A DNA stretch of 64,000 nucleotides from Escherichia phage BF17. The notes below the pieces were generated by a model, which was not told where the DNA came from, made no database searches, and saw only the letters and a program-made list of their open reading frames with translations. Of the stretch, positions 3,131-52,060 are shown piece by piece (within the stretch, counting starts at the first letter, position 1; every line of letters begins with the position of its first letter). The position numbers and the translations under genes are program-made. The stretch lies in sequence record MW822008.1; one strand, written 5' to 3'.

Positions 3131-3709
3131 ATGAATGTATTAGAATTAAGTACTAAGCTGATTAGTATGCGTAATGAGTGGTACGATTGGTTTTATAATG
3201 GTACTGATATGAATTTTTCAAAATATCCATTTATGGAATCAGGATGTGATTCAAGATACCGCTGGTTGAGCAAAAGTGATTCTGGTTTACATATTAGAAT
3301 CGATGATAGTGGTCGAGGAATTATACACGATTTACTTCAAGTTGATCAATTCGTCCATGACAATTGGTGTGATAACGATCCATACCTTGGAAATATGATT
3401 TATATAAGTGAAGATGATTGCGTATTCGTTATCCAGCGACATGGTAATTCTATGTTTTATGTAGCAGACAGCAGTACACCAGAAGGTGCAGCAGCCGATG
3501 GACTTATGCCTAAGATTGATATATTGGAATTTGGATTACCTGAGCACTTCCAGATTAGTACTTTATACGATATTCCACCACTTGAGTTCTTTGAAGAATT
3601 TAAATTGTACTTCAATGATCTTCAAAAATTGAGTACTGATAGACGCATTGAAATAACTGTTAAGTACATGGACGGAACGAAATTAACCGATACGGGGATA
3701 GAATTTTGA
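3131..3709 (+). CDS. hypothetical protein
   Basis: ORF track. No domain recognised. Confidence 0.65.
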   Translation: MNVLELSTKLISMRNEWYDWFYNGTDMNFSKYPFMESGCDSRYRWLSKSDSGLHIRIDDSGRGIIHDLLQVDQFVHDNWCDNDPYLGNMIYISEDDCVFVIQRHGNSMFYVADSSTPEGAAADGLMPKIDILEFGLPEHFQISTLYDIPPLEFFEEFKLYFNDLQKLSTDRRIEITVKYMDGTKLTDTGIEF

Positions 3710-4395
3710 TTAAAGATTTAGATAGAATTTTATATGTACTAAGGGGTGTAATTACATTACATCCACAAATCAATCGAATTGAAAGTACATTTCAGTTGGA
3801 GTCAAGAGAAACTCCATATTCACATATATCAAATGTAGTTGGTTCACTCAGTACTGAAGACTCGTCTTACGATATTTGTGTATGTGAAGTACAACCAAGT
3901 TCGGATCTTGGATTTGCTATTTTTGATAAAAATCAAAATCTCATTAGTATGTTTCAGTGCAATAATCCTTTTTGGAAAACATGCCTGTATCCAGAGTGGG
4001 CTATGCTTGATCCAACCAAGAGTACCATTAAAGTTTATGACTCTAAAAATGATGAAGTCGTTATTGATTTAGATGAGTCAATGTCAGAGGAAGAACACTT
4101 TCAGCTAATGATGATGCGTGCTATGCCTGAATACAATGCAATGATTAACACAGTGCAATACATTAAGGATACCATGCCAGCGTTGCGTACACATGAGTTT
4201 TGTCATCCGGTATTGTATGAACATCTAGATTTAGACTTCAGTACTATTAAATTTAAAGATAGTGTTAAAAAATATATTCAAGAGAATGTTAAATTTGATT
4301 TTATTAGTACTATGAACAATAATCCAAAAACTAATTTTAGGCATCAGTACAATGAATCTTTGTCTAATGGACGTGATACCAGTTGGTGGAAATAA
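3706..4395 (+). CDS. hypothetical protein
   Basis: TTG start overlapping the upstream TGA. The alternative-frame ORF 3839..4072 was rejected. Confidence 0.6.
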   Translation: MIKDLDRILYVLRGVITLHPQINRIESTFQLESRETPYSHISNVVGSLSTEDSSYDICVCEVQPSSDLGFAIFDKNQNLISMFQCNNPFWKTCLYPEWAMLDPTKSTIKVYDSKNDEVVIDLDESMSEEEHFQLMMMRAMPEYNAMINTVQYIKDTMPALRTHEFCHPVLYEHLDLDFSTIKFKDSVKKYIQENVKFDFISTMNNNPKTNFRHQYNESLSNGRDTSWWK

Positions 4396-16974: not shown

Positions 16975-17670
16975 ATGGTTGAACAATTCATGTTTGGTGG
17001 TTATGCTAATGGCGAAGTACGTAACATTTCTATTCCTTACGTAGTTGAGAAAGTTAATGGTTCAGAACGTACATATGATCTAGCATCTCGTATGATGCAA
17101 GACCGTATCATTTTCCTTGATACTGATTTCAATGATCAAATGGCACATATCATCAAACAACAATTGGTATGGTTAGACTCACAAGGTGATTCCCCTATTA
17201 CATTCTACATTAGTTCACCGGGTGGTTCAGTACACGCAGGTTTGGGTATTGCAGATGTTGCTAAGTCTTGTATTTCGCCAATTCGCACTGTAGTAATGGG
17301 CTATGCAGCATCAATGGGTTGCTATACACAATCTGTTATTGGGACTAAAGGTTTCCGTTTAGGTGGTAAACGCTCATACTTCATGTGTCACCAAGTAAGT
17401 TCTGGTACACAAGGTCTAATTACAGACCAGAAGATTTCCCTACAACATTCTGATGCACTGAATACATTGTTGACCAAAGAAATTGCAGAAGCTGTAGGTG
17501 TATCACATGAACAATTACTAAAAGATGCTGACCGCGATTTGTGGTTAAATGCAGAAGAAGCACTTGAATATGGTGAACATGGTTTCATTGATGGTATTAT
17601 TCTTGGTCCACGTAACGAAGAAGGCAAGTACTTAGTTAAGCGTCGCGGTGGTGTAGAAGAGTGGGTGTAA
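16975..17670 (+). CDS. clpP: ATP-dependent Clp protease proteolytic subunit
   Basis: Contains RIIFL, YISSPGGSVHAGLGI, GYAASMGC (Ser) and CHQ (His). Promoter at 16912..16940. Confidence 0.88.
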   Translation: MVEQFMFGGYANGEVRNISIPYVVEKVNGSERTYDLASRMMQDRIIFLDTDFNDQMAHIIKQQLVWLDSQGDSPITFYISSPGGSVHAGLGIADVAKSCISPIRTVVMGYAASMGCYTQSVIGTKGFRLGGKRSYFMCHQVSSGTQGLITDQKISLQHSDALNTLLTKEIAEAVGVSHEQLLKDADRDLWLNAEEALEYGEHGFIDGIILGPRNEEGKYLVKRRGGVEEWV

Positions 17671-19628: not shown

Positions 19629-20064
19629 GGAAAGTAAATGTATTTCACAAAAAGTTGGTTGTGTTATTGTTAAAAATAACCGAGTATTGAGTACTGGATA
19701 CAATGGTACTCCATCAAAACAACCAAATTGTTGTGATGTGAATCAACACTTAGTCAATGATGGACGTTTTCAAGACTGGGTTAGTGATGAAGCAAAGCAT
19801 GAACATCATGAGTGGAGTAATATTCATGAAATCCATGCTGAAATGAACGCTTTACTCTATAGTTCTCCTACTGAACGTCAAGGTGCTACTCTTTACACAA
19901 CACTACAACCATGTTATACTTGTTCTAAGTTGATCGCAGGTAGTGGAATTTCACGTGTAATTTATCTCAAAAATTATCCTCGTACACCACCAGAAGCTAT
20001 TAAAGTACTGGAAGATGCTGGAATTATTGTTAATTGCATTTATGATAAGGGTCTTGATAAATGA
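19585..20064 (+). CDS. cd: dCMP deaminase
   Basis: Zinc motifs HAEMNAL and PCYTCSKLI. ATG at 19585 follows GGAG. Confidence 0.85.
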   Translation: MKHTTWLKIAEVVAEESKCISQKVGCVIVKNNRVLSTGYNGTPSKQPNCCDVNQHLVNDGRFQDWVSDEAKHEHHEWSNIHEIHAEMNALLYSSPTERQGATLYTTLQPCYTCSKLIAGSGISRVIYLKNYPRTPPEAIKVLEDAGIIVNCIYDKGLDK

Positions 20065-20318
20065 CAGTAATAATTATTATTGCTTTTCTAATAACAGTGT
20101 TTTTCATTTTTATGTTATATATAGTTGCTATGGATGAACCTAATACTTCTTTTCGAAATTATGAAGTTCGTTTTTCTGCACAAAATAATAAGTACTATAT
20201 TGTAAACTGTATACACCGTAGTGAGAAAAGGGTAACAAGTAGATTTGGATTTACCATTTATTATAAAGACCGAGTAGAAGCTGATATGATTTGTCAGAAG
20301 CTTAATACTGTAGAATAA
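20061..20318 (+). CDS. small membrane-anchored protein
   Basis: N-terminal helix VIIIIAFLITVFFIFMLYIV. ATGA overlap with the upstream stop. Confidence 0.6.
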   Translation: MTVIIIIAFLITVFFIFMLYIVAMDEPNTSFRNYEVRFSAQNNKYYIVNCIHRSEKRVTSRFGFTIYYKDRVEADMICQKLNTVE

Positions 20319-20347
20319 AAAAAAGGAGCCGTATGGCTCCTTTTTTT
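20317..20347. terminator. bidirectional intrinsic terminator between convergent genes
   Basis: A8-GGAGCC-GTAT-GGCTCC-T7. Confidence 0.8.
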
Positions 20348-20348
20348 G

Positions 20349-20726
20349 TTAACCAGGGAGGTTACAATAATACAAATCCCAAGGGTGATATTTCATCGCA
20401 CCAGTACTCAATTTAATTTTATGAAACTGGAATGATTCGGCAAATGCACTATCGTCAATCTTAATACAAAAAGTGTTTTTGGCTAGAGTTGGTGCAATTT
20501 CCAATGCTGTTTTAGATGCATCTAATCTAATTTTATCTTTATCATAACTAGTGATAGTTACAAAACGATAAACATTAAAATCAGTATCAATGAGATCGTA
20601 AACACAACTAGAACGTTGATTAAAGATGTTCAAGTTATATTTCAATTCACCGTTTATATTAGCTGCGGTTACACAAAACCCGCCGATATTGAATGGTAGT
20701 TTACCTTGTGCTGCGATAGCTTTCAT
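20349..20726 (-). CDS. hypothetical protein; the only minus-strand gene in the window
   Basis: ATG with AAGGAAA upstream on the minus strand. Convergent with the 20061 ORF across a bidirectional terminator. No domain recognised. Confidence 0.6.
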   Translation of the reverse strand: MKAIAAQGKLPFNIGGFCVTAANINGELKYNLNIFNQRSSCVYDLIDTDFNVYRFVTITSYDKDKIRLDASKTALEIAPTLAKNTFCIKIDDSAFAESFQFHKIKLSTGAMKYHPWDLYYCNLPG

Positions 20727-20795
20727 ATTTTATTTCCTTTTTAAATATAAGTATGAAATATATTTGTTTTTTACATCAGATGCACCATGAACTAG

Positions 20796-20824
20796 TTGAC
20801 AAAACATCAGTGGTATGATATGAT
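20796..20824 (+). promoter_or_regulatory. promoter: TTGACA-N17-TATGAT
   Basis: Lies in the 210-bp intergenic region after the minus-strand gene. Confidence 0.5.
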
Positions 20825-20886
20825 CTGTTATAAACTGTACACCTTAAGTTTTATTTTTAAAAATTTGAGTTAAGTACAGAAAAAGT

Positions 20887-20915
20887 TTGACTTAAGTGTT
20901 TAAGTACTATATTAT
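20887..20915 (+). promoter_or_regulatory. promoter: TTGACT-N17-TATTAT
   Basis: Second tandem promoter upstream of the 20951 gene. Confidence 0.5.
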
Positions 20916-20950
20916 TTATATCTTCCTAAACAAAATTGAGGACTTGTTAT

Positions 20951-21559
20951 ATGAAAAGACTATGGCTTGAAGTGATACAAGCAGCAATGTTTCTATTGTT
21001 AATAAATTTTCCAGCCAGTGCTGGTATTGAAAGTAAAAATGTGATAAAGTATAATCCTGAAACCCGAAATGTATATTTCATATCAGATATTACAGATGGG
21101 TCACTCAAGAGAATGATAGAGTTGTATGATAAAGAACACTATGATACCATCACAATTACATCTCCTGGTGGTGATTTTGATGCAGGTATTCGAATGGCAA
21201 ACTTTGTTAGAGACAATGGGATAAATTTAATTGTTTCTAGGTATTGCAATTCAGCATGTACTGTGGTATTCTTTAGTGTATCTCCCGAAAAGCGATATAT
21301 GACAAATCGCTCAGTACTGGGTCTTCATAACATTTCGATTAAAAGTAATGTTACTGATGGTGATAATTCATTTGTGTCTGTAAGACAGTTATCAACTTTT
21401 ACCGAAGAAATGGCAACAAAGGTAGGTTTCCTTTTTTCACTATATGCAGCAAATGGAATCCCACCAGAAGTTCTATTTAGAGTTAGTCGTTCTCGTGGTG
21501 AAGATGTTGTAATATTAACAAAACCAGAACTGGTTTTTTACGGTTCAGTCAAACAATAA
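20951..21559 (+). CDS. secreted ClpP/SppA-fold serine-protease-like protein
   Basis: Signal peptide MKRLWLEVIQAAMFLLLINFPASAG. TSPGGDFDAGIRMANF and CNSAC align with the ClpP motifs SPGG and ASMG. Confidence 0.6.
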   Translation: MKRLWLEVIQAAMFLLLINFPASAGIESKNVIKYNPETRNVYFISDITDGSLKRMIELYDKEHYDTITITSPGGDFDAGIRMANFVRDNGINLIVSRYCNSACTVVFFSVSPEKRYMTNRSVLGLHNISIKSNVTDGDNSFVSVRQLSTFTEEMATKVGFLFSLYAANGIPPEVLFRVSRSRGEDVVILTKPELVFYGSVKQ

Positions 21560-21629
21560 AAATAATTAAAATAACAGGATGATTATGATGTACTTCCTTT
21601 GTTATTAATTATATTGAGATTATATAACT

Positions 21630-21890
21630 ATGACAAACATCCAAAACTTGACATCTATTATTTTTTATGCTACTGTAGTAATGTATGCTACAGTTATTTT
21701 TCTAACAGTTTTCATTTACAAAGATTATCGTAATGGCTTTATTGATTCAACTACAATGAAGTTCAATTCAAAATTCGAAGCAATAATTTATTATGTACTA
21801 TCAACTTCATACTTGGTGTGCCTAATGTTGTTAGGAGCACTAATTTATATCTTATACACAACATTATTTGCAATTGGAGCTATTTTATGA
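21630..21890 (+). CDS. small membrane protein
   Basis: Two to three hydrophobic helices. Confidence 0.6.
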   Translation: MTNIQNLTSIIFYATVVMYATVIFLTVFIYKDYRNGFIDSTTMKFNSKFEAIIYYVLSTSYLVCLMLLGALIYILYTTLFAIGAIL

Positions 21891-22480
21891 CCTGTATTAT
21901 TGCACACACTAACGGAGTAAGTTCTTTTATTGCTGGGGATAAGTTAGGAAGCAATGGATTTACAAAAACTGTTCAAACTGAACCAAAGGTATTCGAGAAA
22001 GAATTTATCAAGTTACATGATGATGGACTAACTAGAACTAAAGAAGTAATGGCATTGGGTTATACTACATCATTTCGTATGGGTCAGTTGTTAAATTATA
22101 ACCTTAATTTACCTGAACAAGATGCTAGTCAAACATTTTCACAATATTTGGTTCTTAAAGTTATTCCAATTATTCGTCAAATGTTTAAAGAAGAATGGGG
22201 TGCACGAGATGCATCACAAGATGTAGGTGGTGGACAATTTATCATTCTCCACAATCATACAATCTATGAAGTTCAAGAAGACTTTTCAGTACTACAACCT
22301 AAAACAAGAATTACCGCAGTAGGTAGTGGGACATATCATGCAATTGCAGCAATGCAAGCATATATTGAAGTTGAGAACGAATCTAAAAAACCACTACACG
22401 AACGTATCAAATCAATTTTTAAAATTGTTAGTGATAATGTAACAAGCGTAAGCGAAGAGTTTGATGTTTTAAAATATTAA
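21887..22480 (+). CDS. Ntn-hydrolase / proteasome-beta (HslV)-like protein
   Basis: ATGA overlap start gives MTCIIAHT..., a Thr next to the initiator Met. Contains GDKLGSNG and AVGSGTYHAIAAMQA, matching the proteasome-type pattern. Confidence 0.55.
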   Translation: MTCIIAHTNGVSSFIAGDKLGSNGFTKTVQTEPKVFEKEFIKLHDDGLTRTKEVMALGYTTSFRMGQLLNYNLNLPEQDASQTFSQYLVLKVIPIIRQMFKEEWGARDASQDVGGGQFIILHNHTIYEVQEDFSVLQPKTRITAVGSGTYHAIAAMQAYIEVENESKKPLHERIKSIFKIVSDNVTSVSEEFDVLKY

Positions 22481-22507
22481 AAGTACTAATATTATAAGAG
22501 AGAATAG

Positions 22508-22702
22508 ATGATGGCATACACAATTTATGAATGGGTTTTGAGTTTTTTTATAGTTTTTTCTATTGTTGTAATTTATAACAATACTAAATGCTTATATAGG
22601 GACTTGAAATCCAATGGTTATCACAAAGATAATAATTTTATGTATGCCTATCATATTGGAATCATTCTGTTATTATCAATATATTTAATTGGTTTTTTAT
22701 AA
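22508..22702 (+). CDS. small membrane protein
   Basis: Two hydrophobic helices. Confidence 0.55.
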   Translation: MMAYTIYEWVLSFFIVFSIVVIYNNTKCLYRDLKSNGYHKDNNFMYAYHIGIILLLSIYLIGFL

Positions 22703-22711
22703 GGATTGAAT

Positions 22712-23464
22712 ATGATATCAGAAAAATTTATAAGCAATGAAGGTAAAAAGCGATTACTGATTATATCAGGTGCAGGACTTTCTGTTGAAAGTGGTATGGA
22801 ACCTTTTCGATTTGATGATGGTTTGTGGGATACATTTAAAATTAATGATGTATGTAACATTGCTAGTTTAACTACAAAATATCATGTTGTTCATTCTTTC
22901 TATAATACATTACGTGTAAAATTGGGACAATGCGAACCGAATGCAATGCATTATTTTATAAAATCGTTAGAAGATCAATATGGTGATTGCTTCCTTCATA
23001 TGACTTCTAACATGGACGATCTTTATACTCGTATTGGTGGTCATGAGCTTAAACTTCATGGAAACTTGTGCGAAGTTATTGAAAATTATAGTATCAATTC
23101 CGATGATTATAATGTTATTAACTGCGGATACGAACCATACATACCAAAACATGATGTTTTTGCTAAACCAAATGTAGTAATGATTGGAGAATATCATCGT
23201 TATGTTGATGGTATTCGCTTACCAATTTACGAAGAACGAAATAATGTGTTGAAATCTCTTAATGAAAATGATACAGTTATTGTAATTGGTAGTAGCGATA
23301 CAGTACTGGTATGGTCGAGATTAGCAGCAGCATTACCATGTTATAGTGTTAATGTTAACATTCGTAAAAATGATAATGATTTTTTGTTTAATGAAAAAGT
23401 TATCAAGCCAGCAACCAAAGCAATACCGCATCTAGAGACTATAATTAAGGAACGTATGAAATGA
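22712..23464 (+). CDS. Sir2-family NAD-dependent deacylase / ADP-ribosyltransferase
   Basis: Contains GAGLSVESGMEPFR (compare GAGISxxSGIPxFR), TSNMDDL (compare TQNIDxL) and the catalytic LHGN. Confidence 0.8.
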   Translation: MISEKFISNEGKKRLLIISGAGLSVESGMEPFRFDDGLWDTFKINDVCNIASLTTKYHVVHSFYNTLRVKLGQCEPNAMHYFIKSLEDQYGDCFLHMTSNMDDLYTRIGGHELKLHGNLCEVIENYSINSDDYNVINCGYEPYIPKHDVFAKPNVVMIGEYHRYVDGIRLPIYEERNNVLKSLNENDTVIVIGSSDTVLVWSRLAAALPCYSVNVNIRKNDNDFLFNEKVIKPATKAIPHLETIIKERMK

Positions 23465-24012
23465 GTGTTAAAGAAGTTCCCTTTGGTGAATATGGCACAC
23501 GTGCAAATTTTGTATTTTGTTATTTCTTTGCAAGAAAATGCAACCCTTACAAAAACTATGAGTTGAATGATATACCAGAAGTAAATTTAGTATTACTGCA
23601 ATTACGATGGGATGGTCTTCTTGGTGGATGTGGTGGAACCGTAGAAAGTACTGATATCTCACTAGAAGATGCGTTGCGTCGTGAAGTTCAAGAAGAAATG
23701 GATTACAATATTTTTGTTTCCCATCTTCGACCACTCAAAACTTTTGAAATTTACCCAGGTGCAAACAGTCACAGTTTTAGCTATGAAGTAACCTATGACG
23801 AGTTGAAACACATTAGAGATGGATACACTAATGCTAAACATGCAAGTGCAGAAGTTGCTGGTGTAAATTTATGTCATATTTCTCGTTATTCTAAGGGACA
23901 AAATCGAGAAGCGGGATATAATAATCTTATGACACAGAACTTCATCGGTACAGCAAAACAAGAATTGGAGTATCTGGTTCAAAAAGAAAACTTACTAATT
24001 AGTTATCTATAG
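23461..24012 (+). CDS. Nudix-family hydrolase (slightly atypical box)
   Basis: Contains GGTVESTDISLEDALRREVQEEMDY. The REVQEE core is present, but the upstream spacing is one residue longer than in MutT. Confidence 0.65.
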   Translation: MSVKEVPFGEYGTRANFVFCYFFARKCNPYKNYELNDIPEVNLVLLQLRWDGLLGGCGGTVESTDISLEDALRREVQEEMDYNIFVSHLRPLKTFEIYPGANSHSFSYEVTYDELKHIRDGYTNAKHASAEVAGVNLCHISRYSKGQNREAGYNNLMTQNFIGTAKQELEYLVQKENLLISYL

Positions 24013-24701: not shown

Positions 24702-26141
24702 ATGAAAAAATATACAATTGACACAAACGTACTACTATCTGACCCGAATGCATCTATTGCTTTTGATGGTGCTGCAATCATTCTACCATTTACAGTACTG
24801 GAAGAATTGGATTCAATTAAGAGTCGTAATGTAGATGTTTCACGCGATGCTCGTGTTGCTATTCGTAACATTGAAGCAATTATTGCAGATGCATCACATG
24901 ATGAGATTAGTAGTACTGGTGTTAATATTGCTGATGTTCATACCAATATGAATCCTGATAGCAAATTGTTTGTTATTACAAACGAAGAAGCTGAAGCACT
25001 AATTCGTACTAAAGGTTCAGAAGAGAAAGTTCAAACCCTTCTCAAAAGCACAGTACCTGATGATAAAATCATTCTGGTAGCTTTAGCAACAGAATCAGTA
25101 CTGGTAACTCGTGATATCAACATGCGTATCAAAGCACTAAGTTATGGTGTCGAGGTACAAGATTATCGCCATGATATTGTTATTGGTGATAGTGATTTGA
25201 TTCACATTGGTCAACACCATTTGGAAATTAATTTTTGGGAAGTATATAGCAACTTATCCAATACTAATATTCAATCCGAACAAGTTGGTCGTCGTTTGTA
25301 TCATTACATTTCTAAAAGCTTGATTGAACATTTGCTTCCACAAAATCTATGCATCGGTGATTATCTATATGATGATGCAGACGTATTATTTGTGTACGAA
25401 GGTCAATCAGCAATTGAGGAAGATGATGGAACACTAACACCAGAAGATATTTTGGTATTCCAAGATATTGGACAATCAGTAGCTTTACGTGCTAAAGTAT
25501 GGGATATTAAAGCAAAGAATATCCAACAAGCACTCGCCATCAACAGTATTCTCGATCCTGATGTACATCTAACAGTACTGCTAGGTTCTGCTGGTACTGG
25601 TAAAACACTAATTACGATTGCTACTGCATTAGAATTAGTACTGGAAAAACGTAAATACGACCGAATCATCTTCTCTAAAACTCAAGACTCACAGTTTGAA
25701 GATATTGGTTTCTTGCCAGGTTCAGAAGCAGAAAAAGTGATTCCATTCTGTGGAGCCGCAATTGACGCGTTAGAGTTTCTTCATAAAGATGATGCTAACC
25801 CACAAGGTAGTATTGAAGAGATTATGAAACGTAATGTTATTCAATTTAAAGCACTAAACTTTGTACGTGGACGTTCATTCACCAACACTATTCTAGTAGT
25901 TGATGAATTCCAAAACATTACACCTGCACAAGCCAAAACAATCTTGACACGAGCAGGATTAAACTGTAAAGTAGTAATTATGGGTAACTTGAGTCAGATT
26001 GACAGTAAGTTTATTAGTCCTGTTAACAGTGGTTTGACATATGTAACTGAGAAGTTTAAAGATTGGGCAGGTTGTCGTGTCATCGAACTTGAAGGTGTTG
26101 TTCGCTCACCACTAGCTGAATTTGCTGAAGAAAATATGTAA
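24702..26141 (+). CDS. phoH: PIN-domain + PhoH-like ATPase (PhoH2/YlaK type)
   Basis: N-terminal PIN domain (YTIDTNVLL...LEELD). C-terminal P-loop LLGSAGTGKTL and Walker B VVDEFQN. Confidence 0.85.
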   Translation: MKKYTIDTNVLLSDPNASIAFDGAAIILPFTVLEELDSIKSRNVDVSRDARVAIRNIEAIIADASHDEISSTGVNIADVHTNMNPDSKLFVITNEEAEALIRTKGSEEKVQTLLKSTVPDDKIILVALATESVLVTRDINMRIKALSYGVEVQDYRHDIVIGDSDLIHIGQHHLEINFWEVYSNLSNTNIQSEQVGRRLYHYISKSLIEHLLPQNLCIGDYLYDDADVLFVYEGQSAIEEDDGTLTPEDILVFQDIGQSVALRAKVWDIKAKNIQQALAINSILDPDVHLTVLLGSAGTGKTLITIATALELVLEKRKYDRIIFSKTQDSQFEDIGFLPGSEAEKVIPFCGAAIDALEFLHKDDANPQGSIEEIMKRNVIQFKALNFVRGRSFTNTILVVDEFQNITPAQAKTILTRAGLNCKVVIMGNLSQIDSKFISPVNSGLTYVTEKFKDWAGCRVIELEGVVRSPLAEFAEENM

Positions 26142-48721: not shown

Positions 48722-48750
48722 TTGACATAGAAAAAGTAATTATGTATAAT
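48722..48750 (+). promoter_or_regulatory. promoter: TTGACA-N17-TATAAT with a TG extension
   Basis: Consensus hexamers. Predicted start near 48757 lies inside the 5' arm of the terminator at 48752..48782. Confidence 0.65.
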
Positions 48751-51370: not shown

Positions 51371-51399
51371 TGGGACATTATATGTTCCAATGATATAAT
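51371..51399 (+). promoter_or_regulatory. promoter: TGGGAC-N17-TATAAT with a TG extension, driving the noncoding locus
   Basis: TGGGACATTATATGTTCCAATGATATAAT is nearly the same as the element at 26149. Confidence 0.6.
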
Positions 51400-51677
51400 G
51401 TATATAGAAAATGACAACGGACATTGAAAAATGGACACTGAGAACCTACTTCTCTTGAAAATGTAAAGGATAGATGAGCTTTACCGTTGTAGCGAACAGC
51501 AGAAGAAACCTGTTAGAGTACTGGCATTCAAACAAACACGATGTAAGACCACGAATCACGGCGACACGGCTGTATAAAGAACTCCGATAAGCATACAGAG
51601 AGTTCCTAGATAGATGTATAAGGTTCGCACCTTACCAGATTTGCTAAGGGAGTTCAAGAATAGCGGACGCAATTTTT

Positions 51678-51706
51678 ACAAGAAAGTTGCGTCCAAAATT
51701 TGAGAA
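51678..51706 (+). repeat. internal repeat module A of the noncoding locus
   Basis: ACAAGAAAG-TTGC-GTCCAAAATTTGAGAA. Matches 27 of 29 positions of 51830..51858. Confidence 0.85.
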
Positions 51707-51829
51707 CAAGTACTACTTTGATCGAATAGAGTTAGTACTGAGTGCTGTTGATGAAAAGACCAGCGACCGTTGCATATGACTGCGATAGAGAGAAACCGAG
51801 CAACCCGCTTTCGCTCTCTAAATTTTGGT

Positions 51830-51858
51830 ACAAGAAAGATCCGTCCAAAATTTGAGAA
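51830..51858 (+). repeat. internal repeat module B of the noncoding locus
   Basis: ACAAGAAAG-ATCC-GTCCAAAATTTGAGAA. Confidence 0.85.
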
Positions 51859-51894
51859 ATTCGCAATTCGATAATATCCGATGCCATCATCGTC

Positions 51895-51920
51895 AAGAGA
51901 GACTTAATTGTCTCTTTTTT
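51895..51920 (+). terminator. intrinsic terminator closing the noncoding locus
   Basis: AAGAGAGAC-TTAATT-GTCTCTTTT with a T run to 51920. Confidence 0.65.
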
Positions 51921-52060
51921 ATTACCTTCATTCCCCTGCGGGGGGATGTAATAGTCCTCAACAAATCCCGTCAAGTTTTTAAAGTACATTATCATTTTCA
52001 GAAGGAACTAGTTTACGAAGTAAACGCAGTGACTTCTTGAGTTACGAGAGAACGAAGTGA

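Follow-up and report, generated by a model that had tools for sequence, protein, structure and literature searches.

The question raised by the 64,000-nucleotide stretch of Escherichia phage BF17 analyzed here (sequence record MW822008.1, hereafter the window) is why its uniform plus-strand organization is broken at positions 20,349–22,702, where a minus-strand gene precedes genes for a putatively exported ClpP-like protein, a proteasome-like Ntn hydrolase and small membrane proteins. An earlier note, made from the sequence alone, had described this segment as an accessory island. We consider it likely that it is instead a strand-switch locus, conserved and situated in the auxiliary-gene region of this Asteriusvirus jumbo coliphage, neither an acquired island nor a single machine, comprising an inverted virion gene, a putatively exported ClpP-fold enzyme and the Ntn hydrolase. 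The inverted gene is bounded on one side by a bidirectional terminator and on the other by a spacer with two predicted promoters. The five open reading frames (ORFs) lie exactly where the earlier note had placed them (Table 1) and, apart from its count of membrane proteins, the sequence features it listed are all present and its fold assignments hold. Of its interpretation, the ClpP fold, the signal-like N terminus, the Ntn hydrolase and the expression of the minus-strand gene stand, whereas the framing of the segment as an island of concerted function does not.

The segment (3 kb) shares 99.5% identity with Escherichia phage PBECO4, at least 99% with 18 deposited phages and 89% with phage 121Q; these are Asteriusvirus jumbo myoviruses of ~350 kb (the PBECO4/121Q group) within the RaK2-like clade. 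Among ORFs of at least 100 amino acids the window holds 83 on the plus strand versus 6 on the minus strand, and the one at 20,349–20,726 is the sole minus-strand ORF of that size not overlapped by a longer plus-strand ORF. A second minus-strand candidate (87 residues, 51,732–51,995) lies inside a 690-bp gap and is doubtful because the ORF annotated there in 121Q has only 51 residues; from the sequence comparison it is probably not a gene. That the whole segment was acquired horizontally as an island of cooperating genes, serving for example superinfection exclusion or counter-defense, would fit the strand switch, the presence of its own promoters and terminator, the several membrane or exported products, the differing position of the minus-strand gene among relatives and the genus-dependent cargo downstream (Ntn hydrolase, Sir2 and Nudix here versus NMNAT and NAMPT in Klebsiella phage RaK2 and Erwinia phage Hallingskeid). 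However, the segment carries no compositional signature, its GC content of 0.27–0.35 being ordinary for a window with a mean of 0.336 and equally low flanks. The ClpP-like gene keeps its place behind the dCMP deaminase gene across genera, as far as RaK2 and Hallingskeid, and the Ntn family occurs alone, in differing contexts, in T5-like and other phages. Co-occurrence of the genes was not seen beyond Escherichia jumbo phages, and the PADLOC defense models gave 0 matches with the five segment products. We found no evidence tying the genes of the segment into one system, and the island reading is highly doubtful.

Within the closer group the order ClpP-like gene, 86-residue gene, Ntn gene, 64-residue gene and Sir2 gene is kept in 121Q, WPEC5 and A4, and phage JNE01 has the same plus-strand order with the minus-strand gene inserted. 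This minus-strand gene occupies the same position as here in RaK2, lies between the 86-residue and Ntn genes in JNE01, is found elsewhere in the WPEC5 genome and is accompanied by additional minus-strand genes in A4. Going by these gene orders, the minus-strand virion gene is the only clearly mobile element of the segment, and the Ntn gene, as its distribution indicates, travels independently across many phage lineages.

The minus-strand ORF is a real gene. Its product is 100% identical to gp347 of phage phAPEC6, which is among the 62 proteins identified in phAPEC6 virions by electrospray ionization tandem mass spectrometry (14.10 kDa, 8 peptides, 75.2% coverage; PMC7247149), and the mass predicted for the 125-residue product is 14,108 Da. 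The ORF is therefore translated and its product incorporated into virions, which disposes of the doubt that it might be untranscribed. Homologues are found throughout the RaK2-like clade, and the protein corresponds to the N-terminal domain (~110 residues) of a structural family of that clade in which the longer members have Big_2 Ig-like repeats in addition. The N-terminal ~110 residues of RaK2 gp496 (RefSeq F403_gp039, 212 residues) and of a 302-residue JNE01 protein are homologous to it with 39–41% identity, and both of these genes also lie on the minus strand in the same neighborhood beside the ClpP-like gene. In contrast to these proteins, which carry one (RaK2) and two (JNE01) C-terminal Big_2 domains, the window protein has none; a neighboring minus-strand protein of phage A4 has at least five, its N terminus lying beyond the compared locus. 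A Pfam scan of the 125-residue protein gave no match, Big_2 and other Ig-like families included, so the "Ig domain" note attached to gp471 of 121Q (3347–3724 of the 121Q locus) is wrong for this short form. For RaK2 gp496 a role in phage–host interaction has been proposed by the authors (PMC3622015).

On the side facing the upstream plus-strand unit, the convergent genes are separated by a hairpin that folds strongly on both strands (−21.3 and −20.0 kcal/mol, z-scores −4.4 and −4.9, with 0 of 200 shuffles as stable). As predicted from its letters, it has the GC-rich stem followed by a U-tract expected of a Rho-independent terminator in both directions. A consensus terminator scanner missed it, probably because the A and T runs lengthen the stem. 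On the other side, the spacer between the minus-strand gene and the ClpP-like gene measures 224 bp and contains the two tandem plus-strand promoters that the earlier note had predicted, both recognizable as sigma-70-like candidates. Sites that differ from the sigma-70 consensus TTGACA-17-TATAAT by no more than 2 mismatches are enriched throughout the window, with 50 found versus 28 ± 5 expected (35 on the plus and 15 on the minus strand, including one perfect match at 48,722–48,750), which is consistent with transcription of the region by host polymerase. Plus-strand transcripts arriving from upstream would end at the terminator, and plus-strand transcription would be restarted by P1 and P2. 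The minus-strand gene would be transcribed late, from a promoter within the spacer; alignment of the regions upstream of four orthologues of this gene revealed no convincing common late-promoter motif, only AT-rich sequence before the ribosome-binding site.

The ClpP-like protein carries the motifs CNSAC (codons 99–103) and GLHN (codons 124–127), in which the earlier note had recognized ClpP catalytic residues. Single-sequence searches of the PDB with all three larger proteins of the segment returned chance matches only, and profiles were therefore needed. The family profile matched Thermus thermophilus ClpP (PDB ID 6hwm) with an E-value of 0.0037, placing Ser101 and His126 on the catalytic serine and histidine, and an AlphaFold2 model (predicted local distance difference test score, pLDDT, 82.9) matched ClpP in Foldseek with an E-value of 1.6e-9, indicating a ClpP fold. 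The Pfam ClpP family (PF00574) was matched at E ≤0.01 by 9 of 11 family members (best E-value 8.9e-7). Alignment by hhalign of the family profile with the phage's own canonical ClpP, encoded from 16,975, covered merely 22 columns around SPGG. The close family is tiny: in a set of 5.8 billion proteins it comprises 16 clusters at 90% identity, each on jumbo-phage contigs and with members ~200 residues long. Invariant in a 16-sequence alignment of the subfamily, which extends down to 25% identity, are Ser71, Gly73, Gly74, Cys99, Ser101, Cys103, His126, Asn127, Tyr165, Gly169 and Pro171. The catalytic serine and histidine thus stand as the earlier note had it, whereas the catalytic aspartate of ClpP has no conserved counterpart.

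When 1.84 billion representatives (clusters at 50% identity) were searched exhaustively by profile, 1889 proteins matched with E ≤0.001. Among the best 148 of these relatives CxSxC is present in 147, a histidine follows the serine by 23–25 residues in 114 (by 24 in 90 of these), an N-terminal hydrophobic segment is found in 123 and a lipobox-like motif in 37. As judged from these profiles, the ClpP-like protein belongs to a large, uncharacterized family of putatively exported ClpP-fold proteins marked by CxSxC and a histidine 24–25 residues later. This wider family has no Pfam family of its own. It is of the COG3904 type ("predicted periplasmic protein"), whose members share with the window protein a putative signal peptide or lipobox followed by SxGG, CxSxC and the histidine 24–25 residues on, and the depositors of WPEC5 tag the orthologue "COG3904 superfamily". 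With ~200 residues the jumbo-phage members make up a short subfamily, whereas the majority of the weaker hits in the best 148 have 220–300 residues or more and match only up to the histidine. No experimental study of COG3904-type proteins was found in the literature, and at three loci of bacterial relatives of the exported family the neighbors are unrelated housekeeping genes that give no functional hint.

Several differences separate the window protein from known ClpP-class peptidases. At the N terminus, where ClpP (family S14, PF00574) has axial loops for contact with ClpX or ClpA, it has a putative export signal; two invariant cysteines flank its nucleophile, unlike in ClpP; the catalytic aspartate of ClpP is not conserved; and it is presumed to be periplasmic and ATP-independent, unlike cytoplasmic ClpP with its AAA+ partner. 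SppA (family S49) and the NfeD/1510-N ClpP-class peptidases use a Ser/Lys dyad. In contrast to these, the window protein has a histidine at the ClpP position, and Lys157 is variable in the wider subfamily. Membership of the SppA/NfeD group is not indicated either by its Pfam NfeD1b_N score, 13.5 bits versus a cut-off of 40, or by a conserved catalytic lysine.

A rule-based reading of the N terminus agrees with the cleavable-looking signal peptide of the earlier note: there is an n-region MKR, a 13-residue hydrophobic core and then P-A-S-A before a glycine. Of 11 family members 10 have the AxA motif, and distant relatives have classical signal peptides or lipoboxes. The protein would be exported via Sec and cut after Ala24, and the mature form may act in the periplasm as a Ser/His peptidase, without ATP because the periplasm has neither an AAA+ partner nor ATP; Cys99 and Cys103 may pair as a disulfide. 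Put together, these steps would make it the first phage periplasmic ATP-independent ClpP-fold Ser/His peptidase, with the Cys99–Cys103 disulfide bracing the nucleophile elbow. It would be exported early in infection, might act together with the adjacent 86-residue membrane protein, and would cleave proteins of the host envelope or proteins that the phage exports, for example in receptor destruction, superinfection exclusion or lysis timing. We regard this composite proposal as speculative and, taken whole, unlikely.

A number of observations weigh against the picture drawn so far. The window protein scores 17.5 bits with Pfam ClpP, slightly below the cut-off of 20.2, and in the 16-sequence alignment no conserved acidic residue C-terminal to His126 replaces Asp171 of ClpP, the columns of Glu184 and Asp185 being variable, so that catalysis is not assured. 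The conserved polar residues Glu7 and Gln10 lie inside the hydrophobic region, no clean AxA site is present in the orthologue of RaK2, and neither the ClpP-like nor the Ntn enzyme was detected among the 62 phAPEC6 virion proteins. As for transcription, P1 and P2 are consensus matches only, and no promoter was found for the minus-strand gene, the minus strand of the spacer having no sigma-70-like match.

The missing aspartate and the sub-threshold Pfam score would also be expected if the protein were no protease at all but an inactive or re-purposed ClpP/crotonase fold, such as a binding protein or another hydrolase, and the COG3904-type family is wholly uncharacterized experimentally. However, at the ClpP catalytic positions the serine and histidine do not vary even among sequences only 25% identical, nor does the SxGG loop, and related clan SK peptidases, SppA and NfeD among them, manage with a Ser/His or Ser/Lys dyad; we give this explanation a minor chance. 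The conserved residues of the N terminus bear on a different possibility, that the hydrophobic segment is an uncleaved signal anchor holding the enzyme at the inner membrane with its domain facing the periplasm and the adjacent 86-residue protein as its partner, comparable with an NfeD-type protease and its membrane substrate. Invariance of Glu7, Gln10, Phe20 and Pro21 would be odd in a disposable signal peptide, and the 86-residue gene stands behind the ClpP-like gene in 5 of 5 Escherichia jumbo phages examined, JNE01 included despite its displaced Ntn gene. By contrast, the hydrophobic core is merely ~13 residues long and runs into P-A-S-A, AxA is retained in nearly all family members as given above, the NfeD score is far under its cut-off, and in RaK2 and Hallingskeid no annotated small membrane gene follows the ClpP-like gene. 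A permanent anchor is, in our estimate, improbable to a similar degree as loss of protease function.

The GenBank entries of fEgEco12, vB_Ec-M-J and WPEC5 label their orthologues of the ClpP-like protein a "head maturation protease", and there is a weak match to the NCBIfam model Clp_rel_HeadMat (20.5 bits versus a cut-off of 120). Such a label is in all likelihood mistaken because of the putative N-terminal export signal and the existence of a separate prohead protease. In phAPEC6 the virion proteins include a "prohead core scaffold and protease", gp227c, and not the ClpP-like protein, and in RaK2 capsid maturation is assigned to gp092 (PMC3622015). Moreover, the gene has auxiliary metabolic genes around it (dCMP deaminase, Sir2, Nudix and PhoH) and host-type promoters ahead of it, and a function in prohead maturation is extremely improbable.

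The Ntn hydrolase also agrees with the earlier note, which had described an ATGA-coupled start giving Met-Thr-Cys. The ATGA lies at 21,887–21,890, where the start codon overlaps the TGA of the 86-residue gene, and Met1, Thr2, Cys3, Asp18, Lys34, Gly146 and Gly148 are invariant in 34 of 34 sequences, with no propeptide. Met1 would be removed by methionine aminopeptidase, as its specificity suggests, and after loss of Met1 the residues are numbered Thr1, Asp17 and Lys33, together with the GSG loop. The family profile matched HslV structures in the PDB with an E-value of 1.9e-7, aligning over the full length of 4g4e with Asp18 and Lys34 on HslV Asp17 and Lys33 and with the GSG aligned. The AlphaFold2 model of the monomer (pLDDT 92.0, predicted template modeling score 0.88) has helices H1–H4 and in Foldseek matched HslV with an E-value of 5.9e-10, BPH with TM-scores up to 0.73 (query-normalized) and proteasome beta subunits as well; PF00227 was matched by 8 of 34 family members. 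The protein would act as a cytoplasmic threonine peptidase or amidase. With HslV (ClpQ) and BPH it shares the proteasome-beta-like Ntn fold, helices H1–H4, the threonine after the initiator methionine, the Asp17/Lys33/GSG residues and the lack of a propeptide; it differs from both in an invariant cysteine at mature position 2 and in having no adjacent AAA+ gene, and from HslV in an identity of only 14–19%.

Its scores with the HslV equivalog models are 20.0 bits versus a cut-off of 137 (NF003964) and 18.9 versus 157.75 (TIGR03692), and by these scores the protein is not an HslV orthologue. It might nevertheless substitute for HslV by docking on host HslU, yielding a phage-directed ATP-dependent protease, since HslV is its best match by both sequence profile and Foldseek, the catalytic residues are intact and the phage has no gene for an AAA+ partner next to it. 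Set against this are the wide margins by which both cut-offs are missed, the low identity, BPH TM-scores that are equal or better, and an insertion of ~17 residues in the Asteriusvirus proteins that shorter family members (~180 residues) lack. The family also occurs in phages of disparate hosts: it was found in 197 deposited phage genomes in varied contexts, among them T5-like Epseptimavirus and Vibrio, Aeromonas, Geobacillus and Salicola phages. We therefore rate an HslU-docking role as rather improbable.

Phage proteasome homologues (PPH, AAH and CPH) have already been described by Fuchs, Alva and Lupas in 2021, who also noted that many proteasome homologues may not form rings (PMC8665760). 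Like the window protein, these are compact, group I proteasome-like proteins of tailed phages that have no propeptide. PPH, however, has ~140 residues and lacks helix H2 (PMC8665760), whereas the model of the window protein contains H1–H4 and the protein is therefore not PPH. No functional work on phage HslV-family peptidases was found in the literature. In Aeromonas phage 2L372D (3001–4454 of the compared stretch) two adjacent genes of 183 and 294 residues are both annotated "peptidase HslV family" and could encode a hetero-oligomeric proteasome-like pair.

Small membrane proteins number two within the segment (86 and 64 residues), so the three of the earlier note were an overstatement; its third is probably the 85-residue product of 20,061–20,318, the final gene of the upstream plus-strand unit and outside the segment. 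Identity to JNE01 is 41% for the 86-residue protein and 37% for the 64-residue protein. In JNE01 the 86-residue gene still follows the ClpP-like gene, with the minus-strand gene standing between it and the Ntn gene, and in 121Q the 64-residue ORF is intact and unannotated. The small membrane gene upstream of the Ntn gene in T5-like phages is unrelated to the 86-residue protein (hhalign probability 0.2%).

Table 1. Coordinates of genes and predicted elements in and around the strand-switch locus of the BF17 window
Feature	Position	Strand	Details
Canonical ClpP-family protein	16975..17670	+	Pfam CLP_protease E 4.2e-41; no hydrophobic segment, no signal peptide
85-residue protein, one N-terminal hydrophobic segment	20061..20318	+	Kyte-Doolittle 19-residue peak 3.18, residues 3–21; phrog_19937 E 1e-31
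Predicted bidirectional intrinsic terminator between convergent genes	20317..20347	both	A8-GGAGCC-GTAT-GGCTCC-T7; GGAGCC/GGCTCC stem, GTAT loop
125-residue virion-associated protein	20349..20726	-	phrog_33171 "virion structural protein" E 5e-88
Candidate sigma-70-like promoter P1	20796..20824	+	TTGACA-17-TATGAT, extended -10 TG; 11/12 consensus positions
Candidate sigma-70-like promoter P2	20887..20915	+	TTGACT-17-TATTAT; 10/12 consensus positions
Putative Sec signal peptide	20951..21022 (codons 1–24)	+	Predicted cleavage between ASA and G
202-residue putatively exported ClpP-fold protein, COG3904 type	20951..21559	+	Motif C99-N-S101-A-C103 at 21245–21259; His126 at 21326–21328
86-residue protein, two hydrophobic segments (residues 10–28, 62–80)	21630..21890	+	Kyte-Doolittle; TGA overlaps ATG of Ntn gene
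197-residue proteasome/HslV-like Ntn hydrolase	21887..22480	+	phrog_1040 E 4e-24; Thr2 21890–21892, Asp18 21938–21940, Lys34 21986–21988, then G146-S-G148
64-residue protein, two hydrophobic segments (residues 4–22, 46–64)	22508..22702	+	Kyte-Doolittle
Sir2-family protein	22718..23464	+	Pfam SIR2 E 3.5e-20; RefSeq-annotated; same plus-strand unit continued

Among the neighboring genes, the ClpP encoded from 16,975 is of the canonical cytoplasmic type, as the earlier note had stated. In RefSeq this protein too is labeled "head maturation protease", yet phAPEC6 and RaK2 each possess another protein, gp227c and gp092 respectively, that is a T4 gp21-like prohead protease. The cargo behind the ClpP-like gene (here at 22,718–24,012) is NAD-related in every relative examined but differs in composition: Sir2 and Nudix in Asteriusvirus, and a cytidyltransferase-like NMNAT with NAMPT in RaK2 and Erwinia phage Hallingskeid; in Salmonella phage 7t3 both gene sets flank the Ntn gene. 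The PhoH-like protein (24,702–26,141) corresponds to gp341c of phAPEC6, which was detected in virions (8 peptides, 30.9% coverage) and is unexpected there for the product of a presumed metabolic or ATPase gene.

The gap at 51,371–52,060 (~690 bp) contains no plus-strand ORF of at least 80 residues and is unannotated in PBECO4. It is conserved far better than the sequence around it: its identity is 99.3% to UE-S1, 97.3% to 121Q and 95% to fEgEco12, compared with 84%, 89% and ~76%, respectively, for segment 20,349–22,702. Jumbo phages of Yersinia, Cronobacter, Xanthomonas and Erwinia gave weaker matches. The element is present in 2–3 copies per genome, and the gap has an internal direct repeat of 36–38 nucleotides (51,671–51,706 and 51,821–51,858). 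Rfam and tRNA scans gave no match; the gap may represent either a structured RNA or a regulatory element that occurs repeatedly.

The three larger genes of the segment are already so named in public annotation. RefSeq lists in PBECO4 and 121Q an opposite-strand "virion structural protein", a "protease (ClpP-like)", a hypothetical protein and a "peptidase HslV family" protein, followed further downstream by Sir2, a Nudix hydrolase and later PhoH, and the 121Q notes add "Ig domain" for the virion protein gp471 and "ClpYQ-like" for the HslV-family peptidase. The novelty is therefore low, and our result largely re-derives the database annotation of a well-sequenced phage group and changes little. 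For annotation its value lies in the GenBank label "head maturation protease", which is very unlikely to be correct for the putatively exported ClpP-like protein. The one fresh angle of the locus is the putatively exported CxSxC ClpP-fold family, a large and unstudied family of at least 1889 clusters at 50% identity to which the RaK2-like jumbo phages are now tied. If the proposed periplasmic peptidase activity were true, a function would be assigned to this large COG3904-type family. Since E. coli is a tractable host, its phages would be a convenient setting in which to learn what the family does.

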